DNA of 64,000 nucleotides from Octopus vulgaris. Taxonomy: Eukaryota. The notes below the pieces were generated by a model, which was not told where the DNA came from, did no database searches, and saw only the letters and a program-made list of their open reading frames with translations. Of the stretch, positions 4,924 through 53,418 are shown in pieces. Both the position numbers and the translations under genes were made by a program. How positions within the stretch are numbered: the stretch's first letter is position 1; each line of letters opens with the position of its first letter. The stretch spans positions 71,982,001 to 72,046,000 of the forward strand of contig OX597818.1 in assembly GCA_951406725.2 (NCBI GenBank), written 5' to 3'.

Positions 4924-6218
4924 GAGGGGCGTTCAATAAGTAATGCCTCTGGCCCACTTGCAGTTTTTGGATCTAGCTGAAATTTTGCACGTGCAATTAT
5001 TGATATCTCTATAGATTAAGTGGCAAATTACAGCTCTGAACTAATTGTGGTTTCTGATTGAACTGAGGTGTTTGAACTGAGTCAAGGGTGAAATGGAGCC
5101 TGTTGAGTGTCGAACAGTGATCCGGTTTTTGTATTTTGAAAGGACGCACACCACGGGATACTTTTGCTGAAATGAAAGTAACTTATGGTGATGAAGCCCC
5201 ATCATATGACCTTGTAAAATACTGGCATCGTGAATTCAAACATGGTCGGAACTCTGTGGAAACAGCTCCCAGATCTGGTCGCCCCACTTCTGCCATTGAT
5301 GAGGTATCTGTCCGTCAAGTTGAGGCTGCCATTTTGGAAGATCGACGCATAACTATTCGCCAAATAGTCCATGAGGTCAAGATTAGTACCGGGTCTGTGG
5401 AAACTATCATTCATGACTATTTGCATATGCAAAAGGTGTCTGCCAGATGGATTCCCAGGTTGCTCACACCTTTCCAGAAGCAAGAACGCGTCGAGTGCTC
5501 GAGGATGAATTTTGAGATGTGCCAAGAAGATGAGTCAAACTTTTTCAAAAGACTGATTACACAGGATGAAACCTGGGTCCATCACTATGATTCATAGACC
5601 AAAGCCCAGTCAATGCAGTGGAAGCACCGTCACTCACCTCCTCAAAAGAAGGCAAGGGTGCAGCCCTCCACTGGCAAGATCATGCTCACAATCTTCTGGG
5701 ACCAGGACGGAGTAATGATGACAGATTTCCTGGCAAAGGGTACCACAATTACAGGAGCCTATTATGCTTCACTTTTGAGGAAATTAAGAGAAGCTATCAA
5801 AATCAAGAGGCGGGGCAAGATCAGCAAAAGCATCCTCCTCTTGCAGGACAACGCTCCGGTCCACAACTCGCGTGTCGCCAGATCAGAAGCACAGGCGTGC
5901 GGCTATGAACTCCTCCCTCATCCCCCTACTCTCCTGACCTTGCACCCTCTGATTTTCATCTCTTCCCAGCCATGAAGTTGTTTTTGAAAGGAAAGCGTTT
6001 CCCAGATGATGCAGCCTTGATTTCTGAAGTTACGTCGTGGTTGGAGGACCAAGCTGGTGTCTTCTACAAAAACGGTCTCCAGAGCTGCATCAAGTGATGG
6101 GAGAAAGACGTAACTCTGGGTGGTTCCTATGTAGAAAAGGACTAATAACTGCGCCAAGTTTCGTTGCTCTACTGCTATGGGAAGTGGGTCAGGGGTATTA
6201 CTTATTGAACGCCCCTCG
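4923..6218 (+). mobile_element. mariner (DD34D) DNA transposon, full length, 1296 bp
   Basis: TIRs CGAGGGGCGTTCAATAAGTAAT / ATTACTTATTGAACGCCCCTCG flanked by TA. Confidence 0.95.
5092..6146 (+). pseudogene. mariner transposase pseudogene
   Basis: Motifs WIPRLL, ITQDETWVHHYD, LQDNAPVH, YSPDLAPSDFHLF; frameshifts near 5135 and 5925, stops at 5595 and ~6095. Confidence 0.92.
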
Positions 6219-6894: not shown

Positions 6895-7073
6895 CACCTC
6901 TTCTCAAGGACATCTTCCTGTCTGACCATTTCTGGGTAAGACAAGCCACCCTATTCGCCACATCGTCTCAGTTTTTATTCACCTGGAGATCAGGACAGAA
7001 CCAGATTCCGAGCAGTTTGACTGGCCCGCCAGTCCAGCGTCCGACGGCATGGCACTACCTCTCCAAGTGTCCA
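6895..7073 (-). mobile_element. Tx1-type LINE ORF2 fragment
   Basis: Translates GRWTGGPVKLLGIWFCPDLQVNKN*DDVANRVACLTQKWSDRKMSL, homologous to the ORFs at 15788-16786 and 25568-27028. Confidence 0.8.
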
Positions 7074-8329
7074 TTATCATAGGGTTTGGTTCTGGTTTCA
7101 CTCACCGCATAAAGATTATCTTTCCTCAGTCATATATTTGCATAATTTTGTCATTCTTTCGAGTTATTATCGTCTGATGGATCCAGATATTTTCATCCAG
7201 AAATGTTTTATTTTTCGTCTTTTATAACAATATCCGGCGTTTAGCATTAACTGTCTGTTTGTGTGAAACCGCATATTTGCGTTTTTGTAAACACAGGTTT
7301 TACTGATCATTTGTGCATTTTATGAAATTTATGTAATCCCATAACTATAAATATCCTTGCTCAAAATTAATCTTGAGGTACGACAAGGTCAGCTTAGCAA
7401 CTTACCACCTCAATTAATATTACCTTCCTTATTAAAATATTCTTTCTAATTGTTCCCTTAGCAAATTCCTCTAACCCACTACAACCTACCTCCCTCATAG
7501 CCCTCCCACCCTCACAAGTGATCTTCTTTCATTTCTTCTCTTCAACCAAAAGCGCTTTATACTACCCCCACTTATTTTGATACTAACTAGTCAGCCCTTC
7601 TCTCTCTCTATTCAGGTCCCTTTATTCAATTTCATACACCTTTACATCTACTGTTCTCCCCTTCCAATACTAACTCACATTCATTATCCCACTAACCACT
7701 GTTATCTTGACCACCAATTCACCCCCACAGTGTCCACTCCCTCTGTCTTCTCTCATACTTTCCTACATACCTTACTAACCTTCCTCTGCTACTGAACTAA
7801 ACACTTCGCTTCCCTCAAATAATTGTCATTCCTTTTCTCACTATCTCAGCCAATAATTCTATCGTTTTTATTCCTATGTTAAATGCATCCATACAGCCGC
7901 ATTTTGTGATGAACTAAATCTAACAGGATTATAGTGGATCACCGAGTCCCCAGAAACAGCTGTTGGACCTATTATACCTTTCTTTATTTTTTTCTGTCGT
8001 TTCTATGCTGTGTAAGATGGACCTATTAATATAAATATGTATATATAAAATCATCATCTGAAACTTTCCACCTTTTGCATGTATACATGTATACATATTT
8101 TGTATTTGATGTATTTAATATATTCAATATATTTGATGTTTCTAATTTGTTTTTCTGCATAATTGCCACTATACCCACTCAACTTAATCCCTCTTGTAGC
8201 CTTTCTTTATAATGTGCAATGATCCCCTGTAAAGACATCGGAATCTAAGTTTGAATCTTTTGAGTACTACTGTCTTCTATATGGAGAATATCTAGATCTC
8301 ATCTGGGAACTATATATATATACATAATT

Positions 8330-12551: not shown

Positions 12552-13419
12552 AGTAGTTTTATTTTTATTTTTATAGCGTGCTTTCACTTCACTACCGAGC
12601 GCAGCTCTGTGTGCCTTGGGTATGTGCTGTGATTTGTCGTGATGCTCTGATGGTTATTGTATGGAAAGTGTTCTGCGTAGGATGTGTGCAGTGCCTAGTA
12701 GTGCAATTTTCTGTATGTTATATGTGTTTGTAAGTCCTGGTGTTTTTGTTATGTATTTGTCTGAATATTTTTTTATCATGCCTAATGCACCTACTATGAT
12801 AGGAATTGTTTCTGTTTTCAGATTCCACATTCTAGTTACCTCTATTTCCAGGTCTTTGTATTTTGAGAGTTTCTCCATTTCTTTTAGAGACACGTTGTCA
12901 TCTGCCGGTACTGATACATCAATTAGAAAGCATTTTTTTTCTTCATGGTCTCTGACAACTATATCTGGTCTGTTGGCCTTAATTTCTCTATCTGTGTGTA
13001 TCGGCATATCCCAGAGTATGGTTGCTTTCTCGTTTTCTGTGACCTTTTCTGGTGTGTGCCTATACCATCTTTTTTCTGTTGTTATTCCATAATGTTGGCA
13101 TAGCTTCCAATGTATGTAAGTTCCAACTCTGTCATGTCTGTGAATATATTCCTTCTTAGCCAAGACTGGGCAGCTAGAGATAATATGATTTATTGTTTCT
13201 TGTCCATCTCCACATATTCTGCAGTTACTTGTAATATTTCTTTTCATTACATGTTTTTGGTAATTTCTGGTGGGGAGGCTTTGGTCTTGTGCTGCAATTA
13301 AAAATCCCTCTGTTTCTGCTTTGAGTCCTGAGCTTCTCAACCATTGCTGGGATTTTTCTTTGTCTATTTCTTTTGCGTTTAGTTTAGTCCAGTATTTACC
13401 ATGAAGGGGCTTTTCTTGC

Positions 13420-13420
<1 letters not shown>
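12552..13420 (-). mobile_element. R4/Dong-like RLE LINE, 5'-truncated, young
   Basis: Open 228-aa frame 12654-13340 with CCHC knuckle, RHD and RPDIV...IDV...EK..KY nuclease motifs; (TAA)n on both sides; same family as 44180-48665. Confidence 0.93.
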
Positions 13421-13456
<36 letters not shown>

Positions 13457-15861: not shown

Positions 15862-17185
15862 TCTCTTTTACTCTTTTACTTGTTTCAGTCATTTGACTGC
15901 GGCCATGCTGGAGCACCGCCTTTAATGTCGGCGAGACGGCACTTCCGTGCCTTGACAGCTTGTCGCGAACAGGTAACGCCGCACGGAAACACTGCCAGGC
16001 CAAGAATTTCTGGTAATTATCCAGGTACCCCGGCCGGAACGTTCTCCGGAACTGGTTGATCAATTGGTTTTCATCGTAGCCCAGGGTCTCCCCCAAGGCG
16101 TCTTCGGACTTAACCTCTACTAACTCGCTATAGAAATCCGTGGTGGAACTCCTGTTGCCGGCATTGCCCGCTCGAGAGAGTAGCTGAAGTGCCTGACGGC
16201 ACTCCAATTGCCAGTCCCCCAGCCTAGGTCTCTGCTTGATCCAATTACCAATGTACGTTAACTGCGGAAGGTAGAACCGAACGTGCGGTAACCATCCAAG
16301 TTCTCCATCCAAGTAAAGCCAGAGGTGCCTCAACCTTAATGCGAATTTTCGCATCTTCAGCCAAGGCATCCCTAGCCCACCCTTTAGCGGTTTCTGGCAG
16401 CAGACAGAGCGCTTTACAAGTGGCTTTCCTCCTTTCCACAAAAAATGGAAAAGGATTCTCTCCAAATTGTTCAACCACAAATCGGGGCAAGGCACCACGG
16501 TCAGGCGGTAGGTGACTACTGATGCTATGAACATCTGCACCACCTCCGCCCTCCCTAGCAGGGATAACGCCCGTCCAGACCAGGTCTGGGTTACAGCGGT
16601 CACCTTGCCGGCCACCTCACTCCAATTTTTCTCTATCTGGAGGTCTGGCCCGAACCAGACTCCGAGCAGCTTAACAGGACCTTCCGTCCAACGCCCCACG
16701 ACGTTATTGGACGGTATCGGCTTGCCTCTCCAGGTGCCGAGTTGCAAACCGACCGACTTGTCCTTGTTCACCTTTGCTCCTGCCACCGCCTCGTAGCTTT
16801 AGATGGCCTCTTCCACCACTGGAAGCTGGCCTTCATCTCCCACGATGATGGAGATGTCATCCGCGTACGCTCCTCTTCCACACCATTGATCCTGCGGTGC
16901 GCCCCCTAGTGTCTCCAACTTCCGCAGCAAAGGCTCAAGAGCCAAAACACATAGAAGCGGGGACTGGGGGCACCCCTGACGAACTGAACCCTCGATCCTG
17001 AACGGCTTCGAAAGGAAGCCGTTCATCTTGACCACAGAATCGATGTCGCTGTACAAAGCAGCGATCCAACCTCGAAAGGTCGGGCCCAGGCCAGCCTCCC
17101 CGAGGACCGCCGCCAAGTACCGATGGTCGACCCTATCAAATGCCTTAGACTGGTCTAAATGTACCACACAGCCACTCCTGCGCCT
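15862..17185 (-). mobile_element. Tx1-type LINE RT fragment (~15924-17163) bracketed by SINE A head (17164-17185) and SINE A tail (15862-15923)
   Basis: ORFs 16799-17167 ([20 protein letters not shown]) and 15788-16786 (GGLGMP, zf-RVT-like start); flanks match the SINE A termini. Confidence 0.9.
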
Positions 17186-19521: not shown

Positions 19522-19904
19522 TCTCTCTCTATATAAACGGCAGTTTGTCTGTGCGTTTTCTGTGTGTCTGTTTTCTCGTACCCTCACCTTGACCACGGCT
19601 TTCAACCGATTCTGATGAAACTTGACACACACATAGCCCAATGTCATAATTCAAAACTAACGCAGCGAAAATTTTGAAAAGTTCCCCCAGTTCTGAAAAA
19701 AATCGATAAATTCGACATGGGGTCGAGAATCAGAAACCCAAACCACAGACCGTCTAGGGGACGCAACTCCACCTTTTTTAACTCTCAAAAAAATTTACCA
19801 TCATTTTTTTTCCATTTTTTTGCTATTTTTTGGCTATAACTCTCTAAAAATGCTTTATAGTTATTTCCCTTACAAACCTGAGCAACGCCGGGCGATACTG
19901 CTAG
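19522..19904 (+). mobile_element. non-autonomous Helitron
   Basis: A|TC start; 3' end ...GAGCAACGCCGGGCGATACTGCTAG|T shared with 1024-1535. Confidence 0.8.
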
Positions 19905-19914
19905 TATATAATAA

Positions 19915-20082
19915 AGACATAAAGACACACACACACACATACAACGGATTTCTTTCAGTTTCTGTCCACTAAATCTACTCACAAGGCTTTGGTAGGTTCG
20001 AGGGTATAGTAGAAGATACTTGCCCAAGGTACCACGCAGTGGAACTGAACCCAGAACCATGTGCTTGGAAAGCAAGCTTCTT
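19915..20082 (-). mobile_element. SINE family A, downstream part of a split head
   Basis: Minus strand starts AAGAAGCTTGCTTTCCAAGCACATGGTTCTGGGTTCAG; the missing first ~37 nt lie at 23418-23454. Confidence 0.9.
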
Positions 20083-22406
20083 TATTTCATAAATTGGCTA
20101 TGGAAGCCGAACATAGATGGGACAAACAAGGACAGACAGATATAGCGGGTGAAGAAGTTGCTTATTACAAATGAAACAGTTTCGAATGATAAAATATAAA
20201 TGTCATGCTGTTAAAAATTAGGTCTTTTTTTCCTTTTAAAAATTTCTATATAAACTTGATGACCATTGCAAATTTTGCAATGTGTGACTGAAGGAAAGGC
20301 GTCCAACAGCCAGCTTCGAACCTTTACTTTTCCTTCTGGCCCCACTTACCTGGTTCCAGTAAGTCGCAGCTTGTTCACTACCAGCTTCTCCAGCCTGATC
20401 TTGCTATCGAGGTGGTAACTAAAGAAGATAACTAGCCTCTGGTCGGAGACGAAGCTACCCGTCACTATGACTCTTACATGTGTCTTCCATACTGTTTCTT
20501 TCAGTATGGCTACTTCACAGAAAAAACAAGCCTTTCTTTCCCTGTTAAGGGAAGAAGGCGACACAATTTTGATAATAGACTCAACCGATATCTGTACTCT
20601 ACTCATCGTTGACAACAATTGCTCGACAAAAGCTATCAGTCCCGATAATTCCGGACACTTCAGTTTCTCTGTCCCGCCCGCACCACGGGCATGTTGGCGA
20701 GACGGCACTTCCGTGCCTTGAAAGCTTGTCTCGAACAGGCAAAACCGAACGGTAGCACTGCCAAGCCAGGGATCACTGGTAATTATCCAGATGCCCCAGC
20801 CCGAAAGTCCTCCTGAACAGGTTTATCAACTTATTTCCATCGAAGCCCAGGGTCTCCCCCAGGACATCGTCTGACATAAATTCCACTAACCCGCTATAGA
20901 AATCCGCAGCGAAACTCCTGTTGCTAATATTTCCCGCCCAAGAGAGTACTGGAGTCCTATCAGGCAGAATCCCCCAGCTTAGGTCTTCGTTTGAACCATG
21001 GCCCAGTGTCCGTTAAGGACGTCAACTGTAGAAGGTAGAACCCTACGTGTAGTGACCACATCTGCTCTCCATCAAGGTAAAGCCAGAGGCGCCTCAACCT
21101 TAACGCGAATTTTCGCATCCTCAGCCAAGGCATCCCTAGCCCACCCTTTAGCAGTTTTTGGCAGCAGACAGAGCGCTTCACAAGTGACTTTCCTTCCTTT
21201 CACAAAAAGCGAAAAAGGATTCTTTCCAACTTGTTCAACCACAAATCGGTGCAAGGCACAACGGTCCTAATTAGTTTGGCAGAATCCCCACTTCTTTCAT
21301 CTCAAGGGATTGACAGCATGCTCGAGGGCCATCTCTATTGTTCTGAATCTGGCTTCTATTGTACCAAATTTTCTTCCTCTTGTTATATAGCTGATATCTT
21401 TTCATACGGATGCCAGGCATTTTTCAATTTTATTTTGTTCCATATGCTTCATTCTTTTTTCTTCTGGGCAGAACCCTTTGAATATAATTGTTTTTTGTTT
21501 GATCTCTTCTGTTGTGTTGTTGGGAGGTGATATTTTTACTTCACCCTCCTCCTCCGTCATTTTTAAAAAATATTTCCTGGAGTATCCCCACTGGGACCTC
21601 CAGACTTTCCATTTGTACAGCGGCGACTACCGCAAAGCCTTCGGAGACTTGTTTTGGAGGTTGGTTAGCCTCCAAAGCCTCGCACTCTTATAAGAGACCA
21701 TTTTTCTCTTATTATATCCACCGACATTTCGGTCGAGATAAATTAGAAAACGCACGAACACAGTTCCAAGAGTTTTTTTGTTTTGTTTTTTTTGCAATCA
21801 AATAAATTTAAATCCCAGCCGCTGTCAGGGGAGGGGCATAGTTCAATGAAGCCCCAAAACGGCTGAAAAACAGTTCTTTTTTCCCAAAGGAAAAGTTATA
21901 GGATTCCGTTCCTTTCCTTTTCTGTTAAAAAAAAATTACTTCCACTCAAGAGGAACAACAGTTCAAATCTCACCCTCGTCGGTGGGAGGGGCGCAGCTCA
22001 AATAAAGAGCCTAAAACGACTGAATTAAGTTTTTTATCGAAATTGTAGGTTTCCTCAGTTCAAAAAATAAATTCCTCGCAGCAGGAACAACAGTTCAAAT
22101 ACTACCCCCGTTTGGGGGTGGGGTGCAGTTCAACAATGCTTACAAAGGCTAAATTTAAAAAAATGCAGTCTGTTGAAGAATCCAATCGAATAAACAATTG
22201 CTAAATGGCCACAGAATTTTCACTATTCCCCGGAATACCGGGAAATATTATTGTCCAACACAGCCTGCAAACAGGCAACAGTTCACAATAACAATTTTCT
22301 ATGAATTTTCAACAACAGTTTACAATAAATAACAGTTTTAACAATAAAAAAATGACAACTCACAGAGCGCAAAAAGAAAAAAAAACACGACCGAAGTCTT
22401 CAACCA
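20083..22406 (-). mobile_element. Tx1-type LINE, internally deleted (5'UTR with tandem monomers, then ORF2 C-terminus 21268-20346 and 3'UTR)
   Basis: Degenerate frames KRSVCCQKLLKGGLGMPWL and VESIIKIV...KETVWKT; 3'UTR ends AATAAA and matches 52810-53034. Confidence 0.82.
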
Positions 22407-22419
22407 GAAGCAAGCTTCT

Positions 22420-23417
22420 ATTATTCATGAAATTGACCATGAAGGCCGTACATAGAAGGGACAGCACAAGGTGAGGATAAAAAAAAACGAAACGAATGGA
22501 AAAGATGAATTGAATATAATGAAAAAATGGAATGAAGCCGTTCGGCCCCACCTTCGAGCGACTTCATTGAACCTGTTAATACAAGCTCATTTTTTTAATT
22601 TAAACTACCATGGATAATGCCTTTGTGACAGCTAGTTTCCCCTTTTTTGGAAAATGTCTATGTCAAGTTCCTTTAAAATGTAAGCATAACTTACCCTTTT
22701 AGGTATTTTGCTGGGTTAATCTGTACCATCATGTCCAGGCTCTGCCCTTGCCAGTTTCCATGCCTAGCAGTATGGCAGCCACCACCAGCCAGGCTACATT
22801 TACTTCTGGGGATATGTCTTCTACCCTAACCCTGGAAGCACGTCTCCCAACGTATACAGGTAAAAGCCCCACTTCTTCAGTTTTTAATGGTGTGGCTGAT
22901 TGCAGTCTGGCGGTAGCTATCTCCCGAAACTGCACTTCCACCGTTCCGTACTTTCTTCCCCTGGCAAGGTAGGATATCTCTTGCCAGACTGGCATCAATG
23001 CCTTTTCAACTTGTGCCTCCGACACCACTTCTATTTTTCTTGTTGCCACCATGTATGTCCTGTAAACGATCGTTCTCTCTTCCTTATCCTTTAACACTTC
23101 TTTGGTGGGGAATACATTCACGTTGTTCCCCTCCCTTTTAAGTATTTCCTTGAACTTGCTCAGCTCTTCCAGACTTATGCCTTCAATTTCTCTCTTTGCC
23201 GCTGCAGCGTAATTCCTTGTTTCTATTACTGTTCAAACATTTCACCACTTCTTCCTCAGACAACACAAATTCTGAAGAAGAATAACTTAAATCCTCACCA
23301 CTCATCACACGATGCCCCTCCATTAAACAAGAGGGAAAACGTCTCACCGCCAAGACAACCAAAAAGCATGTGTGTTAGTCACAAAGACAGTAATTGAACT
23401 AAACAAAACGCTATACC
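22420..23417 (-). mobile_element. Tx1-type LINE, internally deleted (5'UTR + ORF1 N-terminus + 3'UTR)
   Basis: ORF1-like NYAAAAKRE...IVYRTY...YGTVEVQF (22729-23215); 3' end CCTTGTGCTGTCCC...AATTTCATGAATAAT resembles the other Tx1 3'UTRs; bounded by target copies on both sides. Confidence 0.65.
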
Positions 23418-23454
23418 GGAAGCAAGCTTCTTACTACACAGCTACACCTGCGCC
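23418..23454 (-). mobile_element. SINE family A, 5' 37 nt of the split head
   Basis: Reverse complement is GGCGCAGGTGTAGCTGTGTAGTAAGAAGCTTGCTTCC. Confidence 0.85.
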
Positions 23455-30431: not shown

Positions 30432-32120
30432 CTAATTTGTGTTGATGATCCGATAGCCACATTGGTAAAATGGAAAGATTAAAAATTGTGGTAGTAGTTG
30501 CTTTGCGCATTTCTCAATGTGCTCACTAAAAGGTATCATTCTGTATTCTGGGAATGCAATCTGTTGTCGATGCAGTGTGCATCTACGTCTGAGTGATAGT
30601 CCCGTGGATCCCACGTAGTCTTGGTGGCAGCCCGAGCATTTTATGATATAAATTATGTTTTCAGAGGCACAAGTAAAGTTAGATTTGATCTTGAATTTCT
30701 GTCCCTCTTTAAAGAGGAATTCTGATCCTTCTAGCAGGTTTGGACATGTTGCACAGTTCGATCTACCACATTTTTTAACTTTTGCATCCGTAATTTCAGA
30801 AAACAATTTTGCCTTTCTGAGAATCTTTTTAAGTAATTTAGGTTGTTTGTAGCTTTTAATGATTTGGTGTATGTTTAGAATTTCCTTTAATTTGGGGTCC
30901 TTATGAAGTATTGGTAAATTCTGGGTGATGATGGTGAAGGCTTCTTTGTTTCTGGGGTTGTATGTAGATTTGTAAGGTAGTATTTTCGGGGAAGGTGTGT
31001 TGTTGTGTTGAACTTTTCTTAAAGTTTCTATGTTGATTTCTGTTGCACGTCTGATCCCATCCTCTATGAGTTGAGCTGGGTAATGTCTGTCAATTAGGGT
31101 GTTTTTGAGTTCTTGCAGTCTAAAGTTCCTGGTATTTTGTTCTGACACTATTGTGCATATCCTTCTTGCAAGGTTGAAGGGGATGTTTGTTTTAGTGTGT
31201 CTTGGGTGGCATGAATTAAAAAGAAGGTATTGTTTGGCGTCTGTGGCTTTGTAAAAAATGTCTGTTTCTATTTTAAGGTTAATTTTTTTAATTAGTATAT
31301 CCAAGAACGGGAGCTCCTTTTGGTTGTATTCCATTGTGAACTGTATATTAGGGTTTATGCTGTTCAATAGGTTTATGCTGTTCAATAAAGATTCCTGGTA
31401 AATGATTATTTCCATGTAGCCCATTGTTAAGTTCGCAATGACTGGTGCTGCCCTTCTACCCATAGCAATTCCGGATTTTTGACGGTAAAATGTATTGTCA
31501 AACATGAAGTGGTTATTATGTAGGATGAATTCAATTGATTTAGTAATGAATTCTTTACTGATCCTTTTTGGTATTTCTTCCGGAAATTGGTCCAGCCAGA
31601 ACTGTATTGCCTCTAGTCCATAATTATGAGGTATACTGGTATATAAGTTAACTACATCAAATGAAACCAGGATTGTTTCTTCCTTGGCTTTTTTTGGAAG
31701 GTGGTTTAACATATCTAAGTCATCTCTGATATGGCTATCGATATGTTTAAGGAAGGGTTTCAGGAGGATGTCCATAAATAGACTTAGTCTGTGTGTTTTA
31801 CAGGTTGGGCCAGCTACAATGGGTCGTAGTTTTAGGTCCCCCGGGTTAGGTGTGTGTATGTATGTCTTTGGGGATTTTTTAATGGTTTCATTTATAATTT
31901 GGCTTTTATGAATTTTTGGCAGACCATAGAAAATGCTAGGTTTGCATTTAAAGTTTGTTAGAAAGTCAATCTCTTTGGTTGTTAGTTCCTTTTCCTGGGT
32001 TTTAATTAGTGAAGATAGAGTTTTCATTATTTTTTGTGGGGTGTAGTTGGTAATTTTTTCAAAATGTAGGTCGTCATCAAGCAAGGAAATTACAAGATTT
32101 CTATAGTATGATGTATCCAT
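30432..32120 (-). pseudogene. Penelope RT/GIY-YIG ORF (562-aa open frame) lacking the catalytic YxDD segment
   Basis: The sequence passes from ANLTMGYME directly to LLNSINLLNSINPNIQFTME with no RYxDD motif. Confidence 0.85.
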
Positions 32121-32518
32121 TATTACAACTGCGTTTCCCTTGTCTGCTTCCTTAATGGTTATATCCTCATCATTTTGAAGTTCTATCAGTTCCTTCCATT
32201 GTGTAGTGTTAAAATTCGAGTTAACTTTCTGTTTATGTATAGTATGGTAGGGAAAGTTCTCAATGTGGTTACAGAATTCATCAAGATCTTTATTTCTTCC
32301 TCTGTGTGGGATGTGTTCACTTTTGTTCTTGACTAGTGATTCATCTTCAGTATTGAAACTGGTTGATGCTTCTGCTAGTCTTAATTTTCTGCAAAATTCT
32401 GTTATATTATCCTTGATTTCATTTAGGTTGGCTCTGCGTGGAGTTGGTGTAAATTTGAGCCCTTTTGAGAGGATGTTAATTTTTATGTTAGAAAGAGTTG
32501 AAAGGTTGAAAGGTATAT

Positions 32519-32720
32519 ATTATAATTATGAGTATTATTATAATTAAAGTTCAGCAAAAATTTGCTTCGCCTCATACCGAAATTTAGAAATAGTAGTTAA
32601 AAATAACTATTAAAAACTATGAAAACTAATAGTTAGTTTTAACTGCTATTTCTAAATTTCGCTATGTGGTGAACCAAATTTTTGCTGGACCTTAATTATA
32701 ATTATACTCATAATTATAAA
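32519..32720. repeat. foldback inverted repeat at the 5' junction of the Penelope element
   Basis: ~85-bp arms TTATAATTATGAGTAT...GAAATAGTAGTTAAAA / TTTTAACTGCTATTTC...ATACTCATAATTATAA. Confidence 0.85.
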
Positions 32721-40397: not shown

Positions 40398-41880
40398 CCG
40401 TGTTGTGTGGACGCCCCCAGATGATGAAGTAGTAGGACGCTGGACGGACGGGCCGGTCAAGTTGCCCGGGGTCTGGTTCGGTCCGGACTTCCAAACAAAG
40501 AAGAACTGGGACTAGATAACGAGTAGGGTGGCCACTCTCACCCGGCAATGAGCCGACAGGAAGCTGTCCCTAAAAGGTTGGGCGGAGGTGACGAATTCGT
40601 ACATCGCATCCGTCATCAACTACCGTCCGACCCTACCATCACTAAACTGGAACGCACCCTCTTCCGCTTCATGTGGAAAGGAAGCGTTCCGATGGTCAGG
40701 CGATCCGTTTGCTAGCAACACCCGCTGAAAGGGGGACTGGGCATGCCGTGGTTGATGATGCGGAGACATACGCTTAGACTGCGACATCTCCGGCTCTACG
40801 TAGACGACAGTGAGCAGATCTGGTCGCCGTTTGTGAGGCGCGCTTTCCCGCAGCTCGTCTCCATGACCGAGCTGCAGTCGTGGATCAAGAAGAGGCCGAG
40901 GAAGGGCAACTCTGCCGTCCAGGGTCAACCTTGAGCGACTGCATCACAACCAAAGCATTCTACAGGGGATTAGTGGAGGGGAGGTACGACGAAGATGTAG
41001 GGGCGAACCTGGGCGTCGACGAGGAATACCTGACCCGCTTGTTCAAGACGACTTTCGGGCCGGGACCTGTGGACAACTTCCAGAGATCTCTAGCCTGGCA
41101 GTGCTACCGAGAAGCGATACTCGTTCGGGATAAGCTCTACAGACACGGCTCGAAAATTACGGGTCCGGCCTACCCGAGATGCGGTCAGAGCAACGAAACC
41201 GTTCTGCACGCACTCGTGCAGTGTCCAACCATTTCCGACCTGTAGGCTTATGTCGAACGACTGCTGTCATGTGTGGGACGAGTCTGTTTATCAGCCGAGT
41301 CTATCGTCAATATTGTCACGCCTTCTTCCTTCAAGCGGGAAGGAAGGTTTATTTTCATTGTACTTGTGGCTATGGTGAAAGAATGTATCTGGTGGACGAG
41401 TCTGAAAGGATTAGAGACAAACACTTTCCTCTCTGGTCAATCTCTCATCAACTTTTTCAAGTATCACTTGAAAAGGAAGGCGAGAGTAGAGAGGCAAGTT
41501 TTGTCTAGCGAATGTTTCAAAAATATATATGTTAATGTAGCAAGGATGTCAAGTATGACTGACTTGAGCAGGATCCTATGAACCGGAAAAAAAATTTGAA
41601 ACAGAGTTACTTACTTAAATAAATGTAAATAAATGTGTTAATAGGTGACCATAGTCTTTTCGTAGGTTTTTCTTTCTACGGATAAACCTCCCCATTTCTT
41701 GGGAACTTTATGTACGATTTCGATTTTTTTTGTGCGTATATTCCAAACAATTTTGATCCCTTTTGATCGTTGTCCCTAATTTTGTTTCTTTTTATACTTT
41801 GTTTTAGCCACCACGAAAAGAAAAATTCTACTTTGTATTTGTCGCCTCTATGTTCAGCACTGTGTGGCCAATAAAGAAAG

Positions 41881-41881
<1 letters not shown>
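40398..41881 (+). mobile_element. Tx1-type LINE (second family), 5'-truncated, degenerate, inside (ATCT)n
   Basis: Frames 40743-41581 are closely similar to 25568-26700; 3' end GGCCAATAAAGAAAGT(TATC)n. Confidence 0.92.
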
Positions 41882-44179: not shown

Positions 44180-45518
44180 TTCAGCAGTTTTATTTTTATA
44201 ACGTGCTTTCACTTCACTACCGAGCGCAGCTCTGTGTGCCTTGGGTATATGCTGTGATTTGTTGTGATGCTCTGATGGTTACTGTATTGAAAGTGTTCTG
44301 CATAGGATGTGGGCAGTGCCTAGTAGTACAATTTTCTGTATGTTATATGTGTTTGCAAGTCCTGGTGTTTTTGTTACGTATTTGTCTGAATATTTTTTTC
44401 ATAGGAATTGTTTCTGTTTTTAGATTCCACATTCTAGTTACCTCTATTTCCAGGTCTTTGTATTTTGAAAGTTTCTCCATTTCTTTTAGAGACACGTTGT
44501 CATCTGCTGGTATTGATACATCAATTAGAAAGCATTTTTTTTCTTCATGATCTCTGACAACTATATCTGGTCTGTTGGCCTTAATTTCTCTACCTGTGTG
44601 TATTGGCATATCCCAGGGTATGGTTGCTTTCTCGTTTTCTGTGACCTTTTCTGGTGTGTGCCTATACCATCTTTTTTCTGTTGTTATTCCATAATATTGA
44701 CATAGCTTTCAGTGTATGTAGGTCCCAACTCTGTCGTGTCTGTGAATATATTCCTTCTTAGCCAGGACCGGGCAGCCAGAGATAATATGATTTATTGTTT
44801 CTTGTCCATCTCCACATATTCTGCAGTTACTTGTTATATTTCTTTTCATTACATGACATGTTTTTGGTAATTTCAGGTGGGGAGGCTTTGGTCTTGTGCT
44901 GCAATTAAAAAGCCCCCTGTCTCTGCTTTGAGTCCTGAGCTTCTCAACCATTGCTGGGGTTTTTCTTTGTCTATTTCTTTTGCATTTAGTTTAGTCCAGT
45001 ATTTGCCACGAAGGGGCTTTTCTTGCCATCGTTTATCATGGTTCGTTGCTGTTCAATTTTTAGTTTGGATTTCATTTGTTTTATAGCTTTTATTGTGTTT
45101 TCTTCTTCTTCTTCTTCTTCTTCTTCTTCTTCTTCTTCTTCTTCTTCTTCTTCTTCTTCTTCTTCTTCTTCTTCTTCTTCTTCTTCTTCTTCTTCTTCTT
45201 CTTCTTCTTCTTCTTCTTCTATTTGTTAGGTGGTATGATTTCTTGTTTGTATTTGTCAGCTTCCTTAAATACTAAGAACAATTTTTTGTTTTGCTCGTGT
45301 TTTGCCGCTATTTGTATCAGTTTTCCTTCCTTCTGAAGTAGGTATTTTTGTAGTCCTATGGTGGTTATTTTATAGTAGTTTTCCAGCTGTATAAGGCCTC
45401 TGCCACCTTCTATACGTTGTATATATAGCCTTTCTACGTCAGATTTTGGGTGATGCGTGCATCCTAGATCCTGTCATTATTTTTTCTTCTTCTTCTTCTT
45501 CTTCTTCTTCTTCTTCTT

Positions 45519-45549
<31 letters not shown>

Positions 45550-48500
45550 TTTGTTAGGTGGTATGATTTCTTGTTTGTATTTGTCAGCTTCCTTAAATAC
45601 TAAGAACAATTTTTTGTTTTGCTCGTGTTTTGCCGCTATTTGTATCAGTTTTCCTTCCTTCTGAAGTAGGTATTTTTGTAGTCCTATGGTGGTTATTTTA
45701 TAGTAGTTTTCCAGCTTTATAAGGCCTCTGCCACCTTCTATACGTTGTATATATAGCCTTTCTACGTCAGATTTTGGGTGATGCGTGCATCCTAGATCCT
45801 GTCATTATTTTTCTTGTTTTCCTATCTATTTTGGTTAGTTCATTTAGCGACCAGTTAAGGATATTGTAGCTGTAACTTATAACTGGGACGGCTCAAATGT
45901 TAATACCTATTATCTTGTTTTTAGCATTGAGCTCTGTTTTTGGTATTGATCTAACTCGTCTATAGTATTCTTTCTTTATTTTCTCTTTCATTTGTGTGTG
46001 TTGTGCCTTATCTAGTTCATGGATTCCTAAATATTTGTAAGTTTGGCTTTGGCCTAATTCTCTTATTTCATTGGCTTTATCTAGTGTGATGTTGCTATTC
46101 TTAACTAGTTTTCCTCTTTTCAGGGTTACTTTGGCGCATTTTTCTAATCCAAATTTCATATCTATTTCTTTGGTGAATCCATGAATTGTCTTTAATAGTG
46201 TTTCCAGCTGTTTGTCATTTGTAGCGTATAGTTTTAGGTCATCCATATATAAAAGGTGGCTGATCGTTTTGCCGTAACATTTATATCCGTATCCAGTTCT
46301 ATTTAGCATATCAGATAGAGGTGACAGTGCCAAGCAGAAAAGGAGTGGAGAGAGCGTATCTCCCTGGAATATTCCTCTTCAAATGGGGATGGCTCTGGTT
46401 TTCACGATTCCCTCTTTTGTTTGGAGCTGTAGCACTGTTTGCCATTTATTCATAGAGTGTGCATTTTATAATTGTTGGTGCTACTTTGTTAATGGCTAAT
46501 GTTTCGAGGATCCATATGTGGGGGATGCTATCAGACGCCTTTCTGTAGTCAATCCAGGCCATACTGAGGCCTTTCTTCTTTCTGTGGCTGTCTTCAGTTA
46601 TGGCTTTATTGATCATTAGTTGATCTTTACAGTCATATGAGCCTTTGCGGCATCCTTTCTTCTCTTCTGGAAACTGGTTGTTTTCGTCCAGGTGCTTGTT
46701 TAATCTTTGTGATATTACTGCAGTGAATGCTTTGTACATTGTAGGGAGACAGGTTATAGGTCTGTAGTTTTCTGGTTTTGCTGTCTCATTGGATTTGGGA
46801 ATTAAGATGGTTTTCCCCTTCGTGAGCCATTCAGGCACTGTTTCTGGCTCTGCCAGTATGTTGTTAAAGTTTTCAGCCAGCTTTTTGTGCATTCCTGTAA
46901 GATATTTCAACCAGAAGTTGGGGATCTTGTCCTGCCCAGGTGCCTTCCAATTGCTCAGTCTTTGCAGTGCCTGGGTGACCTCTTCAGTTGTTATGGGGGT
47001 CCAAAGTTGCTCAGATGCTGAGTTTTTTGTTTTAATACTCCTTTCTTTTGGTTGTTCTTTCGCCGACCATATTTCTTTCCAGAATTCTTCCACTTCTTCT
47101 GCCGTTGGTGCTGCAGTTATGTGTATTTTATTTTTGCCAAGTTCTTGGTAGAACTTTTGGGGGTCGGAGTTGAACTGTTTGTTTTGTTCAAAGAAACGTT
47201 GGCGTTTCTCTACCGGCGGATCCTTTGTGCTTTGGCAAGGATATCTTGCTTTAGCTTTTCTTTTATCTCAGGTAAATCTTTTTTCTGTGATGATGTATTT
47301 GCACAGTATTTTTGTTTTCTTTTTGTTGCTTAGTAGCATTGATTGTCTCCTGATTTCATTAAGAATCGACAGATCTTTTCTCATTTTTTGTATTTTTTGA
47401 TGTTATTTATCCACAGGGTTCGTTTGGGTGGTGGTACTCCTGTTTGGATGGGTTTGAGGGAGTATCCAGCTTGTTATGTGGCTGCAGTGGTTGCTGCATA
47501 TACTAAGTCATTTAGCTCAGTGATATCGCTATTTGTTTCAATGGCTATTAGTTCTGTGACGGCTAGGTTTATGCTGTTTATAATTGATGTTGTTTTTTTG
47601 TCTATTTTGATTTTTGGGCGGTATGGTCGGTGGTCCATTTTGAGATCTGTGTTTTTCAGTTCTTTGATTATTCTACTTTTTCTAGTATCATAATCATTAG
47701 GCTCCCCTTCGTTGTTTCCAGGTTTTAGATTTGTGTCACTTTCTTTCTCATTCGTATTTTTGTCTGTCGTGTTTTGACTTGCTGCTTGTCGTGCATTATT
47801 ATGTATCCTTACGGTCTGGGTTTGTTGTTTTTGTTTACATCGTTTTTGTTGGAAATGTTACGTTTGTCTTCGTGTTTTACTATCTCAGTGTTTATATTAT
47901 TTGGCATTGTTGTGTGGCTTCTATCTACATTTTCCTGATGTATTTTTTCTTTTAAAAGTTCTATTTCTATTTCTGATATTTTTTTGCGTTGAGAATATAT
48001 CCTCGTACGTTAGCTAGTTTATTAGGGTTCATTGCTGTATCCAAGTCTTTGTTTATGTTATTTTTCTTTCATATCTTATATGTATATGTTGTTGTGTTTT
48101 CGTTCTTTGGGTAGAGCACTGCTGTAAAGTAAGCGTGTAGGATTGAAATGTATTCCTCACGTGTCCATTTATGCATTTTTGGTTTTATTTGCGGGAAGTG
48201 AGGAACAACGTCCGGCCCATTATTTTGACGGTCGTCATTTTCGTTGGGTACCGGTCTGTTCATTTCTGTTGTCACATTGTTTTGCACGTGTAGTTTTTCG
48301 TACTTTTTGTGTAACAAATTTAAAGTACGTACTTCCCGATTGTTATTCTTGGGTTGAATAATACCGGTATTATTTAATTTGTTCGTAGTTTTTTTGTACA
48401 TGGCGTTTGGGGCCGGAGATGATCTGTTGTTGATGGATCGTAATGTATCAAGCATGTTTACATGGTTGGAGATGATATCGAGTTAAAATACATCATTTCA

Positions 48501-49773: not shown

Positions 49774-49929
49774 GGAGTGGCTGTGTGGTAAGTAGCTTGC
49801 TAATCAACCACATGGTTCCGGGTTCAGTCCCACTGCGTGGCACCTTGGACAAGTGATTTCTGCTATAGCCCCGGACCGACCAATGCCTTGTGAGTGGATT
49901 TGGTAGATGGAAACTGAAAGAAGCCTGTC

Positions 49930-49977
<48 letters not shown>

Positions 49978-50641: not shown

Positions 50642-50778
50642 ATATATATATATATATATATATATACTGGAAGCTAAAGAAGTCTGTTTTGACTTGCATA
50701 TCGTAGCCGGATTAAGGAACAAGTACAGAGTGCGTTAACCGGCTCTGTGGTTAATAACGGGTGGTGGTTCGCCCTCAA

Positions 50779-53034
50779 GAGTGCTGTGAAGGGCCAATCA
50801 CGGCCGAGGAGGTGATCGAAATGCTAGGCGAATGCCCTGGGGAGAAGTCGCCGGGTCTTGATGGTTTACCCTATGAATTTTATAAAAGTATGCCAGACTT
50901 GTTCGGGCACCTGCTGGCCAGCGTCTACACCAATTGGAAACAGAATGGGAGAATTCCCAAGTCTGCGAGTCAAGGGGTGGTGACGTTGATCAGGAAGGAC
51001 CCGAGTAAGGGGGACGAAATAGGAAATTTTAGGCCCATAACTCTGTTGAGCACAAAGTTAACGATTTTGGCCAAGGTGCTAGTGAAAAGGTTGGCGCGTT
51101 GCGTGGAGAGACTTGTAGGAGAAGCGCAAACGTGCGCTATCCCGGGCAGGTCGATCCACGACAATCTCCATTTTATACGCTACTCCATAGAGGGCACTGG
51201 TATATTTAGACCAGTCTAAAGCATTTGATAGGGTCGACCATCGGTACTTGGCGGCGGTCCTCCATGAGGCTGGCCTGGGCCCGATCTTCCGCGGTTGGAT
51301 TGCGTGTTGTATAGCGACATTGAGTCTGTCGTGAAAGTGAATGGTTTCTTTTCGAAGCCATTCAAGATCGAGCACTCAGTGAGTCATGAGTGTCCCCTGT
51401 CTCCGCTTTTGTATGTATTGGCTCTTGAGCTATTGCTGCGGACGTTGGAGGCACTGGAGAGCGTGCTGCATGATCTATGATGTGGAAGAGGAGTTACGAC
51501 TCATGCGGATGACATCTCCATCATCGTGGCGAATGAGATATAGCTTCAAGTGGTGGAAGAGGCCATCAAAATTTACGAGGCGGTGGCAGGAGCAAAAGTT
51601 AACAAGGGCAAGTCGGTCGGTTTGCAACTCGGCACCTGGATGGGCAAGCTGATGGCGTCCAAAATGTCGTGGGGCGTTGGACGGAAGGTCTTGTTAAGCT
51701 GCTCGGAGTCTGGGTTGGTCCAGACCTCCAGATAGAGAAAAATTGGAGTGAGGTCACCAGCAAGGTGACTGCTCTAACCCAGACCTGGTTTGGGTGGGCG
51801 TTATCCTTGCTAGGGAGGGCGAAGGTGGTGCAGATGTTTATAGCATCAGTAATCATCTACTGTCTGACCGTGGTACCTTCCCCGATTTGTGGCTGAACAA
51901 GTTGGATTCTTTTTGTGGAAGGGAGGCAAGCCATTTGTGAAGCGCTCTGTCTGTTGCCAGAAACTGCTAAAAGTTGGGCTAGGGATGCCTTGGCTGAAGA
52001 TGCGAAAATTCACGTTAAGGCTGAGGCACCTCTAGCTTTACCTGGATAGGGAGCAGGTGTGGTCACCGCATGTCCAGTTCTATCTTCCGCAATTAACGTC
52101 CTTAACATGGATCATGTAGAGACCTAGGCTGGGGGACTTGCAGCTGGAGTGCCGTCAGGCACTTCAGCTGCTCTCTCGGGCGGGAAATGCCGGCAGCAGG
52201 AGTTTATAGCGGGTTTGTGGAGTTTATGTCCTTAGACGCCTTGGGGGAGACCCTAGGCTACGATGAAAATCAGTTGATCAACCTGTTCAGGAGAGCTTTT
52301 AGGCTGGGGTATCTGAACAGTTATCAGAAATCCCTGGCTTGGCAGTGCTTCCGTGCGGCGTTACCTGTTCATGATAAACCGTCAAGGCACGGAAGTGCCG
52401 TCTCACCGACATCTCCGAGGTGCAGGCAGGACAGGGAAACCGTCTTACATGCATTTGTGGAGTGTCTGGAATTAACGTAACTGATAGCTTTCATAGAACA
52501 ACTGTTGTCATCGATTGGAAGAGTACAGCTATCGGCTGAGTCTATCATCGACATTGTGCCTCCTTCCCTTAACAGGGAGAGAAAAGCTTGCTTTTTCTGC
52601 GTAGTAGCCTTACTGAAAGAAACAGTATGGAAGACGCGTGTGAAAGGAATAGTGATGGGTGCCTTTGTATTTGGCCAGGGGTTAGTTAACTTTTTTAGTT
52701 ACCAACTCAGTAGTAATATCAGCCTGGAGAAGAGGTACCTGTCACGAGAAAGATTCGATAAAAGATGGAAGCTTTTGGGAAGAAAGCTGGTAGAAAGTGG
52801 CACCAGGTAAGTGGAGACCCAGAAGAAAAGCAAAGGTTCTACCCTGGTGACCGGATGTCTTTCCTTTAAGGAATACACTGCATGTTGTGGTGGGTATCAT
52901 AAAATTTTAAAACTGAATTTTTAAACGATTCATCATTCGATAAAATGAACATTTTAATCGTCACAGCTTCTTCATCCTTTTATGTTTGTCTGTCCTCGTT
53001 TGTCCCCTCCTGCATGACAAATTTTAATGAAATA
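50779..53034 (+). mobile_element. Tx1-type LINE (SINE-associated family), 5'-truncated, degenerate
   Basis: [31 protein letters not shown], zf-RVT-like region in broken frames; 3'UTR ends AATAAA and runs directly into the SINE A head remainder. Confidence 0.92.
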
Positions 53035-53150
53035 AAGAAGCTTGCTTCCCAACAACTGCATGACACTTTGAGTAAGTGTCTTCTACTGTAGCCTCAGGCC
53101 GACCAAAGCATTGTGAGTGAATTTGATAGGCAGAAGCTGAAAGAAGCCTG

Positions 53151-53209
<59 letters not shown>

Positions 53210-53418
53210 TGTGTGTGCCTGTGTCTGTGTTTGTCCACCATCGCTTAATAACCGATATTGGTGTGTTTACGTCCTCGTAATTTAACGGTTCGTCAAAAGT
53301 GACCGATAGAATAAATACTAGGTTTACAAAGAATAAGATCTGGGATCGATTTGTTCAACTAAAGGCGGTGCTCCAACATGACTACAGTCAAATCACCGAA
53401 ACAAGTAAAAGAATAAAA
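53035..53418 (+). mobile_element. SINE family A lacking its first ~22 nt
   Basis: Begins AAGAAGCTTGCTTCCCAAC immediately after the LINE 3' end. Confidence 0.85.

Follow-up and report, generated by a model that had tools for sequence, protein, structure and literature searches.

A LINE lineage of the L1/Tx1 group, with ORF1-only derivatives, at one fixed site of an abundant SINE in Octopus vulgaris

Introduction

Why should a single short interspersed element (SINE) of Octopus vulgaris lie split around two deleted long interspersed elements (LINEs), with a copy of the same short sequence at each of the three joints? The locus belongs to a 64,000-nucleotide stretch of contig OX597818.1 (assembly GCA_951406725.2, positions 71,982,001 to 72,046,000 of the forward strand; hereafter the window), where a first-pass annotation had proposed that Tx1-type LINEs land at one site in the tRNA-like head of the SINE and then re-target the site that each insertion regenerates. 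Our analysis of this locus and of its relatives across the 2.8 Gb genome indicates that, very probably, one LINE lineage of the L1/Tx1 group, together with derivatives that retain only open reading frame 1 (ORF1), occupies one fixed site of this SINE, likely by sequence-specific target-primed reverse transcription (TPRT). The evidence consists of a fixed 3′ junction, 5′ junctions that vary and carry a SINE head, variation of the two SINE halves that is independent of the element, intact copies with an apurinic/apyrimidinic-type endonuclease (APE) and a reverse transcriptase (RT), and monophyly of the SINE-associated copies.

Genome-Wide Junctions

The exact junction between the element 3′ end and the target sequence occurs 1,194 times genome-wide, compared with 0 for a reversed control. 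With a 3′ untranslated region (UTR) query that ends before the target, 40 matches were obtained, and the target follows in 26 of the 30 fetched (one of them degenerate, and one the window's own). An exact target-free 30-mer, whose matches overlap in part with those of the UTR query, occurs at 38 places; all 30 fetched flanks begin with the target, after which 26 continue into the SINE, 3 into another element, and 1 into a new SINE head. In the family of element A, the upstream member of the window's stack, the target stands after 29 of 30 3′ ends and the remaining end enters the SINE via a deletion, the flanks overall being SINE in 25 cases and another element in 5. Young copies whose 3′ end falls inside the fetched stretch are followed by the target without exception (16/16; 18 fetched), and 74 of 80 sampled junctions run, as judged by motif, into the SINE body. 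Heterogeneous 3′ flanks, the outcome named beforehand as speaking against targeting, were not seen in the 30-mer, element A, or UTR-query sets. The same junction pattern has 0 matches in metagenome contigs, a result that is uninformative for other octopods.

To the other side of the elements, the first-pass annotation had called for a search for the SINE head, and this was found at most 5′ boundaries. Eighty junction loci taken in order along one contig (C1), with heads called by motif and by eye, comprise 48 with the head, 30 without it, 1 ambiguous case, and 1 that runs off the end of the stretch. The elements behind these heads are truncated at many different positions, 51 nt to several hundred nt away from the 3′ end and including the ORF2 interior and the 3′ UTR, and the number of target bases kept at these joins ranges from −3 to +17, several at 9–10. 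A target-free 5′-end pattern retrieves 83 full-length young copies; the target precedes all 30 that were fetched, of which 26 have the head and 4 lie behind another element's 3′ end, and their flanks are all different. For comparison, a criterion of >20% of flanks belonging to a single sequence type is applied to target-specific families in the available portion of PMC4494074; the proportions in our sets are 26/30, 30/30, 29/30, and 30/30.

Two young families, of 7 and 8 copies, show how the SINE halves behave relative to the elements that divide them. The elements differ by 1.6% and 1.4% over their final 130 nt, compared with 6.7% and 9.9% for the SINE remainders behind them, which are moreover of mixed subtypes. 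Since the remainders are far more divergent than the elements, the SINE is the target and not a fixed tail. Heads are present in 22 of 28 copies with at least 95% nearest-neighbour identity versus 26 of 50 others (p = 0.03). Among 16 older copies anchored on the endonuclease, 12 have no 3′ end within 8.5 kb, 4 of these 12 running into the SINE tail, and the target follows in the remaining 4/4. Later deletion is the best explanation for the head-less copies, because they are more frequent where no close relative exists and because most of the older copies lack the 3′ end as well.

The SINE is short (~400 nt), non-coding, and dispersed, and it ends in a simple-repeat tail. At least 58,747 free sites, counted as exact 33-mer matches genome-wide (control, 0), stand beside the 1,194 occupied junctions; a very abundant SINE had been proposed as the landing pad. 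In the sequence, A-box-like and B-box-like motifs flank the insertion site, which agrees with its earlier placement between the boxes of an RNA polymerase III (Pol III) promoter; we tentatively take these motifs to be such boxes from their likeness to the consensus. A possible tRNA origin of the head is weakly supported by a best alignment score of 54 to genomic tRNA-like genes (maximum of 52 in 200 shuffles), the best matches being tRNA-Lys(TTT)-like loci, and an Rfam scan of the SINE gave no tRNA match, only (AT)n-driven noise. These tRNA-Lys(TTT)-like loci (L224–L248) are many, dispersed, and slightly diverged, and possibly represent a young tRNA-derived repeat. The SINE subtype differs by element family, with the families of both window elements in the AAGAAG...TTCC type and the young family in AAGTAG types, a difference that may reflect timing or specificity.

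The Stack in the Window

Read 5′ to 3′ on the minus strand, the stack starts with the SINE head and closes with the SINE remainder, and between them three target copies alternate with elements A and B, in that order, as the first-pass annotation had described (Table 1). The 13-bp repeat reported there is exact at 20070–20082 and 23420–23432, recurs exactly at 53035–53047, and has one mismatch at 22408–22420; allowing ≤2 mismatches, the window holds 12 matches, compared with 1.8 expected, and 0 of 100 shuffles reach 12. The portion described as the rest of the same SINE is present, but only for its first ~150 nt, with different sequence beginning near 19904. This remainder is 81% identical to the intact SINEs at 803–654 and 49790–49933, and the head is 86–88% identical to theirs. 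As for the two deleted LINE copies, the description holds for element B, which retains an ORF1 remnant (21569–21300) and amino acids 823–1125 of ORF2 (21265–20385; 82% nucleotide identity to the intact copy L063, described below), but needs correcting for element A, in which we found an ORF1-like remnant (23208–22822; 40% amino acid identity to L063 ORF1) and no ORF2 remnant. Element A is likely of an ORF1-only type, and element B likely belongs to an older autonomous family.

An assembled contig from an independent DNA run covers the unique flank and the head and reaches 13 nt into element A, with 1 difference (31-letter bridging rule), and the element interiors were matched at 0–2 differences in three sequencing runs, this one included. 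Chance and assembly artefact are ruled out by the shuffles, by the junction count of 1,194 versus 0, and by the independent-run contig.

Table 1. Positions in the window of the stack, of further copies of the lineage, and of a sister family
Feature	Position	Strand	Remarks
SINE head, nt 1–22	23433..23454	−	A-box-like 11-mer at 23444–23434
Target copy 1, 5′ junction	23418..23432	−	15 nt
Element A	22421..23417	−	internally deleted; likely ORF1-only family; AATAA in 3′ end
Target copy 2, at the joint of A with B	22406..22420	−	first base T, giving 1 mismatch
Element B	20083..22405	−	internally deleted copy of autonomous family; has 5′ UTR and 3′ UTR
Target copy 3, 3′ junction	20067..20082	−	carries one extra T
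SINE remainder	19915..20066	−	B-box-like 11-mer at 20051–20041; (TG)n end; no SINE tail here
Third lineage copy	50757..53034	+	lacks its 5′ part; 5′ end without SINE head
Target copy, then SINE remainder and tail	53035..53410	+	directly 3′ of the copy ending at 53034
SINE head	17163..17184	−	joined straight to copy 5′-truncated inside ORF2; 1 target base kept
Fourth lineage copy	15926..17162	−	5′-truncated in RT; 3′ end and SINE middle deleted; SINE tail at 15925–15862
(TATC)n sister family	27030–25054	−	flanked by (TATC)n at both ends
(TATC)n sister family	40400–41881	+	flanked by (TATC)n at both ends

The fourth copy lost its 3′ end by a later deletion into the SINE tail. The window also holds, as judged by eye, a 695-amino-acid open frame at 30432–32519 (−) with a Penelope-like RT and a C-terminal GIY-YIG-type region; fragments of another family without long terminal repeats (non-LTR) at 45893–48482 (−), 12654–13421 (−), and 44343–44708 (−), with RT and a restriction-like endonuclease-type C-terminus (Dong/R4-like); and a stop-interrupted Mariner-type transposase remnant at 5121–5975 (+).

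The Elements and Their Relatives

Beyond the deleted copies of the stack, the lineage includes L063, a 5.44-kb member of a young family, with an open ORF1 carrying a CCHC knuckle and an open ORF2 carrying APE, RT, and zf-RVT domains. Pfam scans identify Exo_endo_phos, RVT_1, and zf-RVT, together with zf-CCHC at the cut-off in ORF1, and no Transposase_22 in ORF1. The best solved relative of ORF2 is human L1 ORF2p (E = 7e-67, versus 6e-20 for R2), and alignment to a solved relative places the motifs that we take to be catalytic in the endonuclease. Judged by these domains, the lineage is a non-LTR retrotransposon of the L1/Tx1 group. An ORF1 with a CCHC knuckle instead of Transposase_22 marks the Tx1 clade in the available portion of PMC5203782; this domain layout makes the lineage a candidate member of that clade, and no protein named Tx1 appeared among the matches of our protein and cluster searches. 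Full-length copies of the L063 family are 97–99.8% identical over aligned blocks, and full-length frames (≥1,133 amino acids) are found in 14 of 150 among the endonuclease matches listed, both of which point to recent activity. The lineage displays 5′ truncation, a fixed 3′ end, and target-site duplication or deletion.

Many other inserts at the site are ~2 kb long, lack ORF2, and encode one protein of 400–420 amino acids that is 26–34% identical to ORF1 and mostly retains the knuckle. Twenty-four library entries of 1.2–4.2 kb have no ORF2 match, and their families are 90–98% identical along their length; L116 and L119 carry open ORF1-type frames of 398–421 amino acids, L119 being a stack of two ORF1-only elements with open frames. 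Many unrelated 5′ UTRs stand behind the same SINE head. Because the 3′ motif and the target are common to ORF1-only and autonomous elements, the former would likely be mobilised in trans via the common 3′ end. At one further locus (L328), the 3′ end of a different repeat lies upstream of a B 5′ end and is followed by the same target copy, which suggests another passenger family.

An ORF2 tree of 40 rows (none dropped; LG+G4; no reference Tx1 in it) splits 12 SINE-associated copies, together with 3 whose flank was not determined, from all others with a support of 98; the SINE-associated copies are monophyletic. Closest to them in the tree stands a lineage that uses a different target (L296–L299; 64–67% identical in the endonuclease), followed by a (TATC)n-flanked family that groups with an Argonauta protein. 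Among named proteins, the nearest match comes from Argonauta hians (65%). The (TATC)n family has 2,390 exact 3′ ends, and of 20 fetched none lies in the SINE and most then enter TATC-type repeats. In the L296–L299 lineage, two of three 3′ ends (L296, L298, and L299, at ~7050–7100 in element orientation) adjoin the same sequence with a small palindrome; a histone stem-loop considered for this 3′ flank was dropped when an Rfam scan gave nothing. The 5′ flank of L296 contains CCAAT- and TATA-like motifs.

Insertion Mechanism

A fixed 3′ junction combined with a loose 5′ junction is the pattern of TPRT. We propose that ORF2p nicks the bottom strand in the short A-run at the target start, and that the freed T-ended primer pairs with the AATAAA end of the element. 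The second-strand cut would be loose, often ~9–10 nt downstream, within the range of −3 to +17 seen at the joins. We also propose that full-length RNA starts with a 5–7 nt leader of donor-site target sequence, which would anneal seamlessly at matching SINE alleles and leave an extra T at mismatching ones. At 22 young full-length loci, 5 of which were ascertained via the 3′ junction, the 5′ target copy ends in CTAAC in every case, including 7 with a TTAC 3′ copy. The extra T is present in all 7 of these TTAC loci, and the junction is seamless in 9 of 15 matching loci versus 0 of 7 (p = 0.017). That the 5′ copy ends in CTAAC regardless of the 3′ copy indicates that the RNA brings along the distal portion of what looks like a duplication. 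The true target-site duplication would then be nearer 9–10 bp; the 13–15 bp repeat that had been taken for it qualifies in its proximal ~9–10 bp, but the distal part moves with the element. About 40 nt into the 5′ UTR of the L063 family lies what appears to be the relic of a previous 5′ junction, again with the extra-T signature, implying that the present 5′ end was placed ahead of the earlier one in the sequence. No self-cleaving ribozyme turned up when the 5′ end of the young element was scanned with Rfam.

The sequence upstream of the site differs between occupied and unoccupied SINEs. Positions −14 to −1 have 2/364 mismatches in occupied heads versus 37/784 in unoccupied SINEs of comparable subtype (p = 7e-5), while positions +16 to +51 show no difference (21/504 occupied versus 106/2016, with 2 of 16 3′ copies left out because of indels). 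This conservation upstream and not downstream suggests recognition over the A-box region, and recognition likely spans ~14 nt upstream of the site. Alternatively, donor cDNA could overwrite the head and so produce the same conservation; however, the effect persists in extra-T junctions (2/253 versus 42/1288, p = 0.04). If the boxes are what they appear to be, each insertion would part the A box from the B box and silence that SINE copy.

Formation of Stacks

Stacks are heterotypic, with varying partners; they include a full-length triple on contig C9, mixed triples, and both orders of elements. The C9 triple (C9:2663500–2682000; L180, L181) is head-to-tail, with copies 99.0–99.4% identical, and has an extra T at 3/3 junctions, as predicted by sequential insertion at the 5′ junction. 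A private variant in two of its copies makes a local duplication possible. At 17 of 26 readable loci (30 fetched) the B-family 5′ end is preceded by an A-like 3′ end, and young 5′ ends lie behind another element at 4 of 30, whereas random site choice predicts stacking of ~2% (1,194/58,747). A single master A–B dimer, considered for the same pair at L109, L125, and L294, was not supported: stacked and solo copies interleave, and the tree of A copies does not mirror that of B copies (residual Mantel r = 0.12, p = 0.14, from 15 stacks with noisy alignments and weak power).

Most likely, stacks arise repeatedly, either by re-insertion at an existing 5′ junction, with head and target kept, or by template jumping between RNAs. 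Re-targeting of the regenerated site, as had been proposed, may account for these stacks and their target copies; it is, however, one of three possible routes, and the stacks are too frequent for it if sites are chosen at random.

Discussion

The association between LINE and SINE can be explained in ways other than targeting of the SINE itself. It is extremely improbable that the LINE carries the SINE remainder as a constant 3′ tail, and the head as a constant 5′ part, in a composite that is mobile as a unit. Such a composite would account for the SINE body after 74/80 junctions and for the dominance of one SINE subtype within a family, but the remainders, 4–7 times more divergent than the elements and mixed in subtype, vary like independent SINEs, and the same head joins at many truncation points in ORF2 and the 3′ UTR and precedes many unrelated 5′ UTRs. 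A fixed remainder, which the first-pass annotation had named as an outcome contrary to its proposal, is thus not what the copies contain. We also judge it very unlikely that the elements are in truth aimed at tRNA genes, or at some short degenerate motif, with the SINEs as by-catch. The Tx1-group element Dewa does sit in tRNA-array spacers, according to the available portion of PMC3706591, and the off-target 3′ ends in our sample have in common only AAGAAG-like starts; on the other hand, no examined junction ran into a tRNA gene, and the 11-nt site occurs at ≤2 mismatches in one Arg-TCG gene only and, as we read it, not at the equivalent position (40 aragorn calls, 30 loci, an incomplete set). 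An explanation that accepts the targeting is that some head-less copies derive from read-through RNAs, consisting of a LINE 3′ end plus SINE remainder, which were spread by the SINE's partner LINE. The absence of a head in 30/80 loci is compatible with such chimeras, as are L061, L115, and L124, which keep a few tens of nt of the element before the SINE remainder. They remain unlikely, because head loss is commoner in copies without a close relative in the sample, the target is kept at 30/30 young full-length 5′ ends, and the 12 of 16 older copies without a 3′ end could not be produced by TPRT, the 4 that reach the SINE tail indicating later deletions.

The stacking step alone raises a further possibility, namely that a stack results from a single event, whether template jumping or the copying of a read-through dimer RNA. 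Template jumping is known for R2, and the frequencies of 17/26 for B-family and 4/30 for young 5′ ends, against ~2%, speak for such a joining of partners. Conversely, solo copies are found among the stacked A and B copies in trees that are not congruent, partners and their order vary, and the extra T at all junctions of the C9 triple fits sequential insertion, although template jumping is compatible with all of these points. We regard one-event stacking as a tentative possibility, and not as a challenge to targeting of the SINE.

Several observations weigh against the targeting model or limit it. Four of the 30 3′ ends retrieved with the UTR query (L008, L009, L028, and L030) lie outside the SINE; no SINE head was found at the 5′ boundary of 30 of the 80 junction loci; and only 7 of the 16 older endonuclease-anchored copies keep it. 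Stacks are far commoner than ~2%, so simple random re-targeting does not explain them. Head-to-remainder joints are present in independent contigs but are indistinguishable from other SINE copies, and so provide no orthologous empty site. At the site itself, positions +1 to +10 are no better conserved in occupied (1/140) than in unoccupied SINEs (5/560), and the position of the nick cannot be narrowed down to a single nucleotide, since sister families also end AATAAAGAA.

A full-text literature search, to which Repbase and Dfam were out of reach, found no published report of a LINE that is site-specific for a SINE, and no SINE target is named in the available portions of PMC4640811, PMC3706591, PMC8869645, PMC5753468, PMC5203782, PMC9115989, PMC8967140, and PMC3531059. 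Thirteen recently active L1-Tx1 families have been reported in Octopus vulgaris, with no target analysis (PMC13282606). Tx1 families aimed at Mariner, Harbinger, and LTR elements are described in the accessible text of PMC4494074, which also lists Tx1L, Keno, Kibi, and Koshi. The crocodilian families among them (Tx1-Mar, Tx1-9_AMi, Tx1-8_Crp, and Tx1-4_AMi) resemble the octopus lineage as Tx1-group LINEs that prefer another transposon, insert in tandem, and share their target with non-autonomous passengers. They differ in that, as far as that text goes, they use preferred regions of Mariner-N4, Harbinger, or LTR elements, whereas the octopus lineage uses one site in a tRNA-like SINE, and in that their passengers are SINEU rather than ORF1-encoding elements of ~2 kb. 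Tx1L of Xenopus laevis, an APE-type LINE that is site-specific within the non-autonomous mobile element Tx1D, is similar as described there, but its target is a piggyBac-type DNA transposon and not a retroposon with a putative internal Pol III promoter. Keno (U2 snRNA), Mutsu (5S rRNA), Dewa (tRNA-Leu spacer), and Kibi and Koshi (microsatellites) share the precise 3′ junction, the variable 5′ junction, and the multicopy target, in the portions of PMC4494074, PMC3706591, and PMC4640811 available; Kibi and Koshi are further matched by the octopus sister family in (TATC)n. In those accounts their targets are host genes or simple repeats, while the octopus target is a dispersed mobile SINE with its tens of thousands of exact free sites. 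The ORF1-only elements recall HAL1 (half-L1), a non-autonomous derivative that encodes only ORF1p; HAL1 is mammalian and L1-derived, with no target specificity mentioned in the available part of PMC5753468, whereas the octopus has several divergent CCHC ORF1-only families at one site. The earlier characterization of the LINE as a parasite of a parasite accordingly suits a lineage that targets a SINE, but the idea has precedent in the DNA-transposon and LTR targets of PMC4494074, to the extent that its text is available. What appears to be new is the target class, a SINE, for a known kind of site-specific LINE.

Going further, we lean toward the view that this is a recently active octopod lineage, not yet described, whose endonuclease recognises the dominant SINE at its Pol III promoter region. 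The SINE copies would serve as a self-renewing safe harbour, each of them disabled by its occupant, and the lineage would have tracked the turnover of SINE subfamilies and spawned stacking ORF1-only hitchhikers; it would then be the first LINE shown to be SINE-specific. The arrangement forms a three-tier system of SINE, autonomous LINE, and ORF1-only passengers. Repeat libraries for the octopus genome are prone to merging the ends of LINEs with halves of SINEs, and the split SINEs themselves offer ordered, nested markers for dating SINE subfamilies. Close sister lineages in this one genome use three targets, namely the SINE, (TATC)n, and a third repeat; with intact copies at hand, the switch in APE endonuclease specificity is directly testable by domain or loop swaps, and such switching is relevant to LINE-based targeted gene insertion.

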